Part shown: in pieces, positions 2,300 through 32,838 of the stretch
Layout: each line of letters opens with the position of its first letter
How positions within the stretch are numbered: the stretch's first letter is position 1
Origin: a phage
Assembly: GCA_024572335.1 (NCBI GenBank)
Contig: GCA_024572335.1_3052.1
DNA: 64,000 nucleotides
Direction: 5' to 3' (one strand)
Made by a program: the position numbers and the translations under genes
The notes under the pieces: model-generated
What the model saw: the letters and a program-made list of their open reading frames with translations, nothing else
Told to the model about the DNA's origin: nothing
The model's database searches: none

Positions 2300-2474
2300 G
2301 GAGTTTAATTTCCTTAGCAACTGAACTAAATACAGCACGATCGCAAATCATGCGTTTATGTAACTTGAGTATAATATAGCAAACTTCAAAACTATTTACA
2401 TGAGTAACACGAACAGCATTACCATTAATGAGATAATACTGCCCCTTTTTAATTTCTTTATCAACCATAACCAT
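2292..2474 (-). CDS. hypothetical protein (60 aa)
   Basis: first ORF downstream of early promoter at 2505-2534. Confidence 0.4.
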   Translation of the reverse strand: MVMVDKEIKKGQYYLINGNAVRVTHVNSFEVCYIILKLHKRMICDRAVFSSVAKEIKLHG

Positions 2475-2504
2475 ATCAATTCCTCAAAGGCAATTCATAT
2501 GTTA

Positions 2505-2534
2505 ATAATACCACAGTTTGAGCTTGTTGTAAAC
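2505..2534 (-). promoter_or_regulatory. sigma70-type early promoter (T4 early consensus-like)
   Basis: on minus strand GTTTAC (2529-2534) - 18 bp - TATTAT (2505-2510); flanking tgtaaacaactttgtgaaa repeat. Confidence 0.6.
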
Positions 2535-2599
2535 AACTTTGTGAAAATTATTTTAGGGAATGATAAGAAGGGAACGATAGCTTAGAATGGTAATATACA

Positions 2600-2630
2600 G
2601 AATGTGAGAAAGAAAGGCCCAGAGGGCCCG
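2600..2630 (-). terminator. intrinsic terminator
   Basis: minus-strand GGGCCC-UCU-GGGCC followed by UUUCUUUCU. Confidence 0.55.
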
Positions 2631-2632
2631 TC

Positions 2633-3055
2633 TTAGTCTTCTATGATATCTCTATCATATCCAAGTGAAATGAGAGTTTCTTTGAAGTGTTTAATGTTCT
2701 TTTGTCTAGAATCATTAATGAAAATGACTGGATAACGAATGTTAAGAGATGTGAATCCAGCGCGTTTAGCAAGAGATACAATCAGCGGACGATCATACTC
2801 AATCTTACCGTTATTTGTAAGAACTTTATAGAAAGTAAAAGGAGCATTAAGCTCCTTTAGAAGTTTTGTAACTGATTGACATCCAGGACAACGACCTACT
2901 TCTTCGGGGATGCCATAGATTTCAATCTTATTCTTTAAATTCGAGTTTTGTTCCACGAGAAATAATTCCTTGATAAGCCCAGTATGGCGGGTTAACAGAA
3001 TCCTCACCAGAGTTTTCTTCAGGAAAATAAACCTGGATAACGAAGCCGGATTCAT
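2633..3055 (-). CDS. glutaredoxin/NrdH-like redoxin (CPGC active site); start uncertain
   Basis: CPGCQ CxxC motif within IEIYGIPEEVGRCPGCQ...; the domain has no internal Met and its frame overlaps the upstream ORF; only ATG is at 3053-3055 with no SD. Confidence 0.45.
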   Translation of the reverse strand: MNPASLSRFIFLKKTLVRILLTRHTGLIKELFLVEQNSNLKNKIEIYGIPEEVGRCPGCQSVTKLLKELNAPFTFYKVLTNNGKIEYDRPLIVSLAKRAGFTSLNIRYPVIFINDSRQKNIKHFKETLISLGYDRDIIED

Positions 3056-3239
3056 CAAAGGTGAAATAAGTAGTAGGCAGTTCACCTAACAAATCGGCAC
3101 GAGCGTTGATTTCTTCGAGGTCTTGTTCACGTCCAGCCCAGAAGCTTGGGTTCAGACTACATTCATAGAAATAATAGTCATTACCGAACATATCAAAACC
3201 ATTCCAACTCTCTACTACATACCGCTCAAAACTAATCAT
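2928..3239 (-). CDS. hypothetical protein (103 aa)
   Basis: ORF; stop lies inside the redoxin reading frame (see finding). Confidence 0.45.
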   Translation of the reverse strand: MISFERYVVESWNGFDMFGNDYYFYECSLNPSFWAGREQDLEEINARADLLGELPTTYFTFDESGFVIQVYFPEENSGEDSVNPPYWAYQGIISRGTKLEFKE

Positions 3240-3241
3240 AA

Positions 3242-3457
3242 TTAAGCCTTTTTATCAAGAACAGCATTCAGCTTGTTAGTAATTTTATCCAGACGCTTAT
3301 TGAACTCACTAGAAGATAAGCCCTTTTCTGGAGAAATTAAACTAATAACGAAAAATACAACAATAAAAGGAATAAGAAAAATAGCTCCAACTGCCATAAA
3401 CAAAAAGAACGTTACAGTTGTAAGAAAATCAGCTAAACCTTTACGAAATTTATACAT
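3242..3457 (-). CDS. small membrane protein (71 aa, one TM helix)
   Basis: hydrophobic stretch VTFFLFMAVGAIFLIPFIVVFFVISLI. Confidence 0.45.
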   Translation of the reverse strand: MYKFRKGLADFLTTVTFFLFMAVGAIFLIPFIVVFFVISLISPEKGLSSSEFNKRLDKITNKLNAVLDKKA

Positions 3458-22981: not shown

Positions 22982-23159
22982 CTAAACGAATAGGTTCATG
23001 AATGCCATATCCTTGAACAGAAATTTCTGTCGTAGGATAAATTCCATCAATATCACCCATATTCCAGGCTTCGTTAAATTGCTGTTCGCCTGAATTACTA
23101 AACCACTCGGCGAAAGCATTTAGCACATCTTTAGAACCTTCAATAATTATCTTTGCCAT
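22938..23159 (-). CDS. hypothetical protein (73 aa)
   Basis: ORF, ATGA-type overlap with the GrcA-like gene. Confidence 0.4.
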   Translation of the reverse strand: MAKIIIEGSKDVLNAFAEWFSNSGEQQFNEAWNMGDIDGIYPTTEISVQGYGIHEPIRLVEYDLCTGEEVKYD

Positions 23160-23521
23160 TACAAACTCTCAGTAAAGGTACGAGCGATAACGTCGCGCTG
23201 CTGTTCCGGAGTCAGAGAGTTAAAGCGAACTGCATATCCGGATACACGGATGGTCAGCTGCGGATATTTTTCCGGATGCTTAACTGCATCTTCCAGAGTT
23301 TCGCGACGCAGAACGTTAACGTTCAGGTGTTGACCACCTTCAATTTTAACTGTAGGCTGTTGCTCAATTTCAATTTCACGGGCATGCAAACCGTAGAAAA
23401 TTTCTGGGTCTACAAAAGAGTCCTCTTTAAAGGTTTTGGAGACAATAATTCGTGCTTGAATACCATCTTCAAAATAAATAGTACCTTTATGTGTGCCTTC
23501 AAGAATTTGATATGCTTTCAT
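23159..23521 (-). CDS. autonomous glycyl radical cofactor (GrcA/YfiD-like)
   Basis: C-terminal ~60 aa [60 protein letters not shown] carries the RVSGY glycyl-radical signature, as in E. coli GrcA. Confidence 0.85.
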
Positions 23522-23528
23522 ATAAACC

Positions 23529-23855
23529 TCAATTAGAAAATAAATTTATCCAAGATTGTTCTTTAATTAAAAATGGCTCAGAATCATATGCCATTAAACT
23601 CTGTGTGATTAGTCCTTTAAAAGGCCCATCAATAAATTCCATGGTAAAATATGGAATTTTATTCATTAGCCGTGCATTAGGAGCAGTACATAAAACTCTG
23701 CATCCTTTGAATACGCCTTTTTGTAATTTGTATTGCTTAGGATAAAATTCGCTTAAAATGTTATTTTTTGCCAAAATTTCAAAATGATTCACCAATTTAT
23801 TTTTAATAGTTTTTGGCGAAAAATAAAGATATTCGAAAAGCTGAGTGTCTGTCAT
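23529..23855 (-). CDS. hypothetical protein (about 108 aa)
   Basis: probable start at MMTDTQ, abutting the upstream stop. Confidence 0.4.
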
Positions 23856-24394
23856 CATTGCATTCCAATCACAAAAAATTGAGGACGAGTAATACCACCA
23901 ATGCAACATTTACTATTACAGCAGTAGTGTACAGTGTCAATATGGACACTATAAATCTTATCCATATCAGGAGATTTGACAGGCTCATCAATTATATACA
24001 AAATTCGCGAAAGCGATAAACCTCTGAACTTGCTTCCTTTATTACCAATAAAACTGCGCACAGAATCAGTAAATAAACGAAAACGTATATCATCATTAGA
24101 ATAACGCGAAAATTCCTTTTTAATGTTATTTGCAGAAATTTTAGCGTAAGCTGAAGTATTAGAAAGAACAATAACTGTTCCGCCATCATACAGCCAATTA
24201 GCAGCAAAGTTAGTCACAGCAATTGATTTACCAGATTGACGTCCACCGTCTAGTCGAAGTGTGCAATACTGCTTAAATAATTCTTCAAATGGCGGGATAT
24301 ATTCGTTTTTACAAATTTCTTCTACTCTAGCATCAGAATGGTGTGTAAAAGCATTCATCAGGGATAGATAAGGACCAGTTAAAAATGTTCTCAT
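23855..24394 (-). CDS. stand-alone P-loop ATPase resembling the terminase large-subunit ATPase core
   Basis: Walker A LDGGRQSGKS and Walker B ILYIIDEP about 90 aa apart, compare gp17 in this window (SRQLGKT ... MIYIDECAF); ATG 24392-24394 (complement). Confidence 0.5.
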   Translation of the reverse strand: MRTFLTGPYLSLMNAFTHHSDARVEEICKNEYIPPFEELFKQYCTLRLDGGRQSGKSIAVTNFAANWLYDGGTVIVLSNTSAYAKISANNIKKEFSRYSNDDIRFRLFTDSVRSFIGNKGSKFRGLSLSRILYIIDEPVKSPDMDKIYSVHIDTVHYCCNSKCCIGGITRPQFFVIGMQ

Positions 24395-24535
24395 TTTATT
24401 CTCTCTAGGTTTGGGCCATTCCGTGGCGCATGAATTGTCCATTTCTGTATTTACCCATTACCGCACTTGGGCTCGACCTTATTACAGGTTGGCGGGAATC
24501 CCTCATAGAATCATGAGGTCCAGTTTGTTCCCATA

Positions 24536-25009
24536 TTATTTGAACGATTTAACGTACTGAATAGAACCCTTACTATTCACAAAGGCAATTTTACCATTTT
24601 TATTATACATGGTAGCAGTACGCTGATAACCATAGGTTTGTTTACCAGATTGATAACCAACTAATGCAAAATTATCTTCACCCATTTTATTCTGTTTAGC
24701 GCGAATGCGTTCATGACCATGTGCCATAAGAACCTTAGCATCACCAGTTGCAATGGATCGACGAGTTTTTTCATCTTCAACTGCATTAACAAAGTCGTCA
24801 AATGAATCAAATTTAGCATGAGATTTATTATACAATTTTCCATCTACTGCATAATTATATCCCTGTACATCCATCTCAACTTCTGTACCATCATCCAATA
24901 CAGCAGTAATTTTTTGACCTTTTTTAAATTTCAAAAGATCAGTAAAAGATTCAGCAATAATTTGAGAATTAATAGCTGCTTCAGTGATAAATTCTTGATA
25001 TGTTTTCAT
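24536..25009 (-). CDS. internal-protein-like head protein with capsid targeting sequence
   Basis: N-terminus MKTYQEFITE|A matches the T4 IP leader MKTYQEFIAE ending at a gp21 cleavage site; early promoter 25064-25093. Confidence 0.7.
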   Translation of the reverse strand: MKTYQEFITEAAINSQIIAESFTDLLKFKKGQKITAVLDDGTEVEMDVQGYNYAVDGKLYNKSHAKFDSFDDFVNAVEDEKTRRSIATGDAKVLMAHGHERIRAKQNKMGEDNFALVGYQSGKQTYGYQRTATMYNKNGKIAFVNSKGSIQYVKSFK

Positions 25010-25063
25010 GGGTTTCCTTTAAATATTTTAATTAGTAATTTGTCTCTTCAAGCAACTGTGAAT

Positions 25064-25093
25064 ATACTATCACAATTCTAGGAGAAAGTAAAC
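25064..25093 (-). promoter_or_regulatory. early promoter upstream of the IP-like gene
   Basis: GTTTAC (25088-25093) - 18 bp - TAGTAT (25064-25069). Confidence 0.5.
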
Positions 25094-25097
25094 AACT

Positions 25098-26066
<969 letters not shown>

Positions 26067-26070
<4 letters not shown>

Positions 26071-26555
26071 TTTAATTTCCTGCATTCAGTGATAAAGTTA
26101 TTTAAATTTTGAGTGTATTTCTTTTCATCAAAAATCTTTTGCTGTCTGCGTAGCCGCCATGGCATTTCAATGAACACGCACCATATCCCAGATAATATTG
26201 CTGCAGTAAAAATATTAACAAGTATGGTTAAAAGAATCCAATCTCCTATTCTGTCCATTGGATTTTTTATAAAAAAGTAAAATACGAATGATGTCACAGG
26301 AAGACTAATAATATACCACAGAATCATAATTTTATCTGTGAACCAATCAGCGTTCGTTAACTTAGCGCGACCATTATGAATACACACGAATTTATCATCT
26401 GTTATAATAGATGGCTTAGCTGCTTGATATCCCATTCTAAACTCACTAATCAACAAATTTTTCATATCTTCGGAACAACCATTCCAGTCAACTCTATCAA
26501 CTGAAATGCCATCATCCCCATCATCTAAATCATACCAGCGAGTTTTTAAAATCAT
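26067..26555 (-). CDS. membrane protein (162 aa, 2 TM)
   Basis: hydrophobic segments IMILWYIISLPVTSFVFYFFI and WILLTILVNIFTAAILSGIWCVFI. Confidence 0.45.
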
Positions 26556-32553: not shown

Positions 32554-32838
32554 TTACAAAAGATTTTTAGCAATAATTTTAAGCTGAGCTACTGAAATAT
32601 GCTTGGCTTTAAACAAAGCAGTTTCTTCAGCAGGGGAGATAACGATTGTAGCACCATCTTTCTTAGCGGACCATCCATCACCCAGGTAAACAGTACCTTT
32701 GACTTCTTCGCCATCAACCAGGCTAATCATCGGTTTACCTTCACGTCCTTTGTTTGCTTTAATAACTTCAGAAGTAAGGGTCGCTTCAGTCAAAGTAGAA
32801 GCGTTAGTGGTTGAAGTGAATTCTTGATAAGTTTTCAT
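32554..32838 (-). CDS. internal-protein-like head protein with capsid targeting sequence (ipI-locus position)
   Basis: N-terminus MKTYQEF...LTE|A; gene sits upstream of 57B as T4 ipI does; early promoter 32869-32898. Confidence 0.65.
   Translation of the reverse strand: MKTYQEFTSTTNASTLTEATLTSEVIKANKGREGKPMISLVDGEEVKGTVYLGDGWSAKKDGATIVISPAEETALFKAKHISVAQLKIIAKNLL

Follow-up and report, generated by a model that had tools for sequence, protein, structure and literature searches.

The DNA that lies between the lysozyme gene e and the small genes vs.8, vs.7 and vs.6 of this phage is very likely the T2/RB14-type allele of the polymorphic internal-protein locus of Tequatrovirus, in which the cassette difference from phage T4 is confined to the body of a single gene, ip4. 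The locus is already catalogued, as one known allele of a hypervariable site that is represented in hundreds of sequenced phages. Positions in this report are those of the window, by which we mean the whole 64-kb stretch of phage DNA that was analysed (64,000 nucleotides), and every gene between 20 and 29 kb of the window is on the minus strand. Read along that strand, the order is nudE (25630-26085, the upstream neighbour of e), e (25098-25592), ip4 (24536-25009), vs.8 (23855-24394), vs.7 (23529-23858) and vs.6 (23159-23521). The e gene, which is the upstream anchor of the locus, encodes the 164-aa T4 lysozyme (Pfam Phage_lysozyme) with 96.3% identity to its T4 counterpart.

A megablast search with positions 23000-25700 against 50,697 phage records yielded matches in 902 records, and in 429 of these 80% or more of the query is covered by a single place in the record. 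Among the 50,697 records, Escherichia phage vB_EcoM-G157lw matches best (99.3%). Phages T2, RB14 and AR1 are colinear with the 2.7-kb stretch at about 97%, and they belong to a larger number of sequenced phages that are colinear with the locus at 97-99%; the annotations of these three name the genes nudE, e, Ip4 (IpIV), vs.8, vs.7 and vs.6. In the T4 reference record the genes run e, ipIII, ipII, denV, vs.8, vs.7, vs.6, vs.5, vs.4, vs.3, regB. The original prediction for this region had placed only ipIII, ipII and denV between e and regB of T4, while allowing that this gene order might be mistaken, and it was indeed in error, as vs.8, vs.7, vs.6, vs.5, vs.4 and vs.3 all lie between denV and regB. 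The three ORFs that it described, of 157, 179 and 108 aa, do exist with the coordinates and lengths that it gave, and they correspond to Ip4, vs.8 and vs.7, respectively; the last two had been taken for foreign ORFs because that T4 order omitted vs.3 to vs.8.

The 157-aa product of ip4 begins with MKTYQEFITEA, of which residues 1-10 (MKTYQEFITE, encoded at 24980-25009 on the minus strand) are the capsid targeting sequence (CTS), identical to the T4 CTS at 9 of 10 residues. The protein had been regarded as novel, but it is the internal head protein precursor Ip4 (IpIV), a name that appears in the annotations of T2, RB14, AR1 and PST. It is 99.4% identical to T2 IpIV and to RB14 Ip4, from which it differs at one of 157 residues through an A/T substitution at residue 76. 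Its gene is directly downstream of e in T2, RB14 and AR1, as in the window, and directly upstream of vs.8 in those of T2, RB14, AR1 and PST where vs.8 is annotated (in T2 that gene is a pseudogene). Residues 1-157 match profile positions 1-158 of 158 of the Pfam family PF24183, DUF7412 (E 9.4e-96; 318.7 bits, compared with a gathering cut-off of 27), and the protein also matches phrog_3155, "internal virion protein" (E 1e-101). Encoded in 471 phage records, Ip4 is the commonest internal protein at the e-vs.8 locus. BLASTP similarity to T4 IPIII is limited to 13 aa at the CTS, and the match to T4 IPII (31% over 77 aa, E 7e-7) comes mostly from the N-terminus; judged by these alignments, Ip4 is unrelated to either T4 protein beyond the CTS.

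The other two ORFs were originally described as unrelated, which did not hold up, since they are T4 vs.8 (92%) and vs.7 (100%), the genes directly downstream of denV in T4. The gene for vs.8 is upstream of vs.7, as it is in T4, and the protein is 92.3% identical to vs.8 of T4 and 98.4% identical to vs.8 of RB14 (values computed with the 195-aa ORF rather than the 179-aa form), with a match to phrog_1488 (E 9.6e-79). The vs.7 protein is 100% identical to its T4 counterpart over 109 aa and matches phrog_2049 (E 6e-54), beyond which no family was detectable. It had also been considered that the neighbours of ip4 might be diverged copies of denV or ipII; BLASTP gave no match of either vs.8 or vs.7 to those genes, and this candidate explanation was rejected. 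Against this background, it is exceedingly improbable that the region represents a newly remodelled internal-protein locus, composed of a novel CTS protein and two ORFs foreign to the T4 content at this place. Such a reading can draw on the dissimilarity of Ip4 to IPIII and IPII outside the CTS and on the lack of denV, but it has to contend with a protein that is named and widespread, with two neighbours that are T4 genes in their T4 positions and with colinearity of the whole 2.7-kb stretch with T2, RB14 and AR1. What stands of the idea of remodelling is that ipIII, ipII and denV are replaced by one different CTS protein beside e; vs.8 and vs.7 are not part of the replacement. We return, then, to the T2/RB14-type allele and to the boundaries of its cassette.

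The blastn breakpoints between the window and T4 define a cassette-specific segment of 441 bp, the Ip4 body (24537-24977, minus strand), which takes the place of 1,441 bp of T4 DNA comprising the ipIII body, ipII and denV; T4 thus carries two other internal proteins plus denV where the window carries one Ip4 body. The downstream breakpoint, window position 24536 (3443 of the T4 locus), falls on the final base of the stop codon of ip4, and its counterpart is the stop codon of T4 denV, with 96% homology up to that point. The upstream breakpoint, position 24978 (4885 of the T4 locus), falls inside the CTS-coding 5' end of ip4, which corresponds to the 5' end of T4 ipIII, and from here homology resumes at 94%. 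On both sides the T4 ipIII-ipII-denV locus has the same flanks as the window, with e upstream and vs.8, vs.7 and vs.6 downstream, and T4 ipIII shares with ip4 of the window the ribosome-binding site, the CTS start and an upstream hairpin. A tblastn search of the window for remnants of denV, ipII and ipIII matched the CTS alone.

Each breakpoint adjoins a conserved segment that could serve as an arm for homologous recombination. The 5' arm (24978-25026, minus strand) is a block of about 49 bp that contains the ribosome-binding site and the CTS-coding sequence; it is common to the ip genes compared, with 40 of 49 columns invariant among six ip gene starts from five phages. The 3' arm (24395-24535, minus strand) is the conserved spacer, about 140 bp long, that separates the cassette from vs.8; it hardly varies among T4, T2, NBEco003 and PST, irrespective of which gene, ip4 or denV, comes last in the cassette. 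We attach no significance to this near-invariance of the spacer, because it equals the overall identity of these genomes (96-97%). The presence of a structured RNA in the ip4-vs.8 spacer was considered and rejected, as the segment has no Rfam match and folds no better than shuffled sequence (z = 0.40). Based on the positions of the breakpoints, T-even phages that infect the same cell might swap cassettes, with the two flanking arms providing the homology for recombination, and exchange of this kind would explain why the arrangements e-ip4, e-denV-ip4, e-ipIII-ip4 and e-ipX-ipIII remnant-ip4 occur at one and the same place. The original description of ip polymorphism is reportedly that of Repoila et al. 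in 1994. Exchange of this kind is in keeping with the published account of the ip loci as polymorphic sites (Repoila et al. 1994, as cited in PMC12373910).

Several sequenced relatives exemplify these alternative arrangements. In phage PST the order is e-ipIII-ipIV, and in NBEco003 it is e-denV-ip4. In the latter genome (NC_055831), denV occupies 2319-2735, between e and ip4. It thus precedes the ip gene there but follows ipII in T4; given this difference in position, denV appears to behave as a mobile cassette within the same locus. Phage VEc74 (MT932213) has e, a different CTS protein, an ipIII remnant and ip4, in that order. The segment between e and ip4 of VEc74 (2419-3317) encodes the 105-aa CTS protein, MKTYQEFIAESAAGQRVEGG..., followed by a copy of ipIII that lacks the CTS and the first ~30 residues, and this CTS-less ipIII looks like the footprint of a recombination event within the CTS block, to judge by its sequence. 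On the other side of e, the window contains an ORF for a predicted membrane protein of 162 aa, e.2 (26067-26555, minus strand), which is also present in RB14. Most of e.2 (26097-26551) has no T2 counterpart, the alignment of the window with T2 being broken between 26096 and 26552, so that e.2 is another small presence/absence polymorphism near the ip locus.

The spacer between e and ip4 contains an inverted repeat, GAATTGTGA...TCACAGTT (25051-25079, minus strand), which is conserved and appears as a hairpin in the predicted fold. It aligns with the e-ipIII and ipIII-ipII spacers of T4, that is, the element recurs before T4 ipIII and again before T4 ipII. The fold energy of the 101-nt e-ip4 spacer around the hairpin is not significant in comparison with shuffled sequence (z = -0.78). 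Two exact matches to the T4 late-promoter motif, TATAAATA, lie upstream of e (25606-25613 and 25619-25626, minus strand) and none was found between e and ip4, for which reason co-transcription of e and ip4 is likely and the late motifs upstream of e would probably also drive late transcription of ip4. A scan for sigma-70 promoters and terminators returned counts that were not above those for shuffled sequence.

The lack of denV extends beyond the ip locus. The original prediction had found no ORF resembling endonuclease V in the window, which agrees with our tblastn search with T4 denV, where no match was obtained in the 64 kb even at E<=10. Repeated at E<=1 on the closest relative, vB_EcoM-G157lw, whose complete genome (167 kb) aligns with most of the window at 94-98%, the search was again negative, and no denV is present in the annotated e-to-vs.8 interval of T2. 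From the lack of the gene in both the window and the G157lw genome, it appears very probable that the phage is without denV, the gene for endonuclease V (a pyrimidine-dimer glycosylase), altogether. The natural lack of the v gene in T2 is the classical explanation for the higher sensitivity of T2 than of T4 to UV. The absence of denV thus predicts that the phage would show a T2-like UV sensitivity, above that of T4, which would be relevant to handling the phage or inactivating it by UV.

Downstream of the cassette, the ORF that contains vs.8 spans 23855-24442 on the minus strand, and an internal methionine codon at 24394 yields the 179-aa form. This is taken to be the real start of the gene, because all of the homologs in our alignment (18/18) begin at MRTF or MKTF. 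In T4, vs.8 is annotated as a protein of 219 aa, with 40 N-terminal residues more than vs.8 of the window. The extension (3291-3413 of the T4 locus) coincides with an upstream ORF, of 33 codons in the window (24405-24506, minus strand), within the spacer that precedes vs.8; the T4 annotation joins this ORF to vs.8. An ORF of 33-34 codons, closed by a stop codon immediately ahead of the ribosome-binding site of vs.8, is present at this place in the window, T2, RB14 and PST, and from these reading frames it would seem that the T4 reference annotation of vs.8 is probably 40 residues too long at its N-terminus. In T2 (LC348380, 3359-3891) the gene has two 2-bp deletions relative to the window, so that it is spread over three reading frames and is a pseudogene. 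The broken frame implies that T2, at least, can do without this conserved P-loop protein in the laboratory.

The suggestion that the 179-aa protein is a P-loop ATPase holds at the level of sequence motifs, and the predicted fold points the same way at modest scores; vs.8 may be described as a conserved, single-domain protein that is P-loop NTPase-like. Its sequence has both the Walker A (GxxxxGK[ST]) and the Walker B (hhhhDE) patterns of ASCE-type P-loop proteins. Walker A (DGGRQSGK[ST]) is invariant among 18 homologs with identities down to 40%, and in Walker B (IIDEP) all residues are invariant in the same homologs except the Asp, which is conserved in at least 90%. An AF2 model (pLDDT 81, pTM 0.82) returned as its top Foldseek matches in the PDB, at modest scores (E 3e-4, TM 0.38-0.52), only ASCE ATPases, among them the SLFN11 helicase domain, a poxvirus helicase, a terminase ATPase, KaiC and F1. 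There is also a Pfam AAA_14 match below threshold, and over the P-loop region the protein is matched, weakly and in part, by PHROG profiles of the terminase large subunit and by PADLOC profiles of HerA.

The ORF for vs.7 spans 23529-23909 (minus strand), and two conserved methionine codons, at 23858 and 23855, would give proteins of 109 and 108 aa. The vs.7 ATG overlaps the stop codon of vs.8 (ATGA), and T4 has the same order of the two genes with the same overlapping stop and start codons; the overlap suggests that translation of the two may be coupled. Next in line, vs.6 encodes a 120-aa glycyl-radical protein (Pfam Gly_radical, E 2.5e-18) that is 98.3% identical to T4 vs.6 and is a conserved downstream neighbour of the locus. 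It is a phage-encoded homolog of the autonomous glycyl-radical cofactor GrcA/YfiD of E. coli, a known and striking cargo beside the ip locus. The role of GrcA/YfiD is that of a spare part for oxygen-damaged pyruvate formate-lyase.

Insights into what Ip4 might do can be drawn from its processing sites and from the better-known internal proteins of T4. Two sites of the type cut by the prohead protease gp21 are recognizable in the Ip4 sequence, ITE/A at residues 8-10 and IAE/S at residues 18-20, the latter ending at E20, whose codon is at 24950-24952 on the minus strand. In 14 Ip4 family members compared (identities down to 61%, with homologs from Klebsiella, Salmonella and Serratia phages included), E10 and E20 are invariant, and three residues ahead of each of them stands I, L or M without exception; the second possible site of the original prediction, IIAE/S, is real and conserved as a sequence motif. 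The predicted mature protein would have 137-147 residues, 15.5-16.5 kDa and a pI of 9.1-9.3. The precursor of T4 IPI has 95 residues. Its mature form has 76 residues (PMC3012670). Because the IPI-type ORF of the window has the same kind of two-step propeptide, and because ~19 residues are removed from T4 IPI, use of the second site in Ip4 is plausible. This is the only other ORF in the 64 kb that bears a CTS (32554-32838, minus strand), and it lies at the ipI locus, close to gene 57B; its product, MKTYQEFTSTTNASTLTE/ATLTSEV..., is an IPI-type internal protein of 94 aa. The propeptide of 18 residues consists of the CTS and then a second L-x-E site, in the same layout as in Ip4, and by analogy with T4 IPI* this protein is expected to inhibit the CT596-type GmrS/GmrD enzyme.

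We propose that Ip4 would be made late in infection and carried by its MKTYQEFITE capsid targeting sequence into the scaffolding core of the prohead, where gp21 would cut it after E10 and probably also after E20, leaving a basic protein of ~15.5 kDa with a pI of ~9.3. The trimmed protein might then be injected with the DNA and would most likely neutralise one specific host defence nuclease. This sequence of packaging, cleavage, injection and inhibition of defence is the most likely course of events by analogy with T4, in which Ip1, Ip2 and Ip3 are specific inhibitors, each of a single GmrSD type IV restriction enzyme (PMC12373910). It also fits the view of the ip loci as hypervariable sites with anti-defence cargo, a point on which the original prediction and the published accounts concur (PMC3012670; PMC12373910). 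Ip4 resembles T4 IPI*, Ip2 and Ip3 in having a CTS, gp21-type sites and a small basic mature form and in being encoded at a non-conserved accessory locus, but it has no sequence similarity or detectable fold similarity to them. T4 Ip1, Ip2 and Ip3 also have GmrSD targets, whereas Ip4 was negative in published tests against 15 GmrSD groups. In our search of the literature we found no paper that assigns a function to Ip4.

The outcome of those tests, in which none of 15 representative GmrSD groups was reproducibly inhibited by ip4 to ip10 (PMC12373910 section 10, Suppl. Fig. 9), might mean that Ip4 is an injected inhibitor of a defence outside the GmrSD family, for instance an unrelated immune system or a different modification-dependent nuclease. 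Such a target is compatible with the predicted fold of Ip4, which resembles no known inhibitor. We nevertheless regard this possibility as rather unlikely, since the T-even internal proteins whose targets are known (Ip1, Ip2 and Ip3) all act on a GmrSD enzyme, and since the GmrSD family is very diverse and has only been sampled, with only eight of the tested systems being active against T-even phages (PMC12373910). Phage T2, which carries Ip4, is restricted by GmrSD-ECOR17 and GmrSD-ECOR21 (PMC12373910), and this, like the negative tests, counts against the role that we propose for Ip4.

The same lack of a GmrSD target for Ip4 in the published tests could be accommodated if the protein had no specific anti-defence target at all and were a basic head protein that serves as a counter-ion or packing component of the DNA, or that protects the DNA non-specifically. 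The pI of the mature protein (9.1-9.3) would suit such a role, as it does for IPII and IPIII, and in each T4 head ~1000 molecules of internal protein lie embedded in the DNA (PMC3012670). We consider this improbable, because all three of the T4 internal proteins that were once viewed in this way proved to be specific inhibitors (PMC12373910), because close relatives differ at the locus in which whole genes they possess, a variation that fits the cargo of an arms race better than a structural role, and because the good conservation of the Ip4 family (identities of 61-99%, and numerous invariant positions across the folded part) points to a specific fold and interaction. The reading that we prefer remains that of an injected protein directed against one specific host nuclease.

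The Ip4-type allele, which is found in T2, RB14, AR1 and many other sequenced phages, is an example of the textbook cassette polymorphism of the T-even phages, and the very wide distribution of Ip4 makes it a sensible candidate for anti-defence screens. If its target should prove to lie outside the GmrSD family, the ip cassettes of the T-even phages would constitute a general anti-immunity toolbox of pre-made proteins that is not dedicated to type IV restriction.
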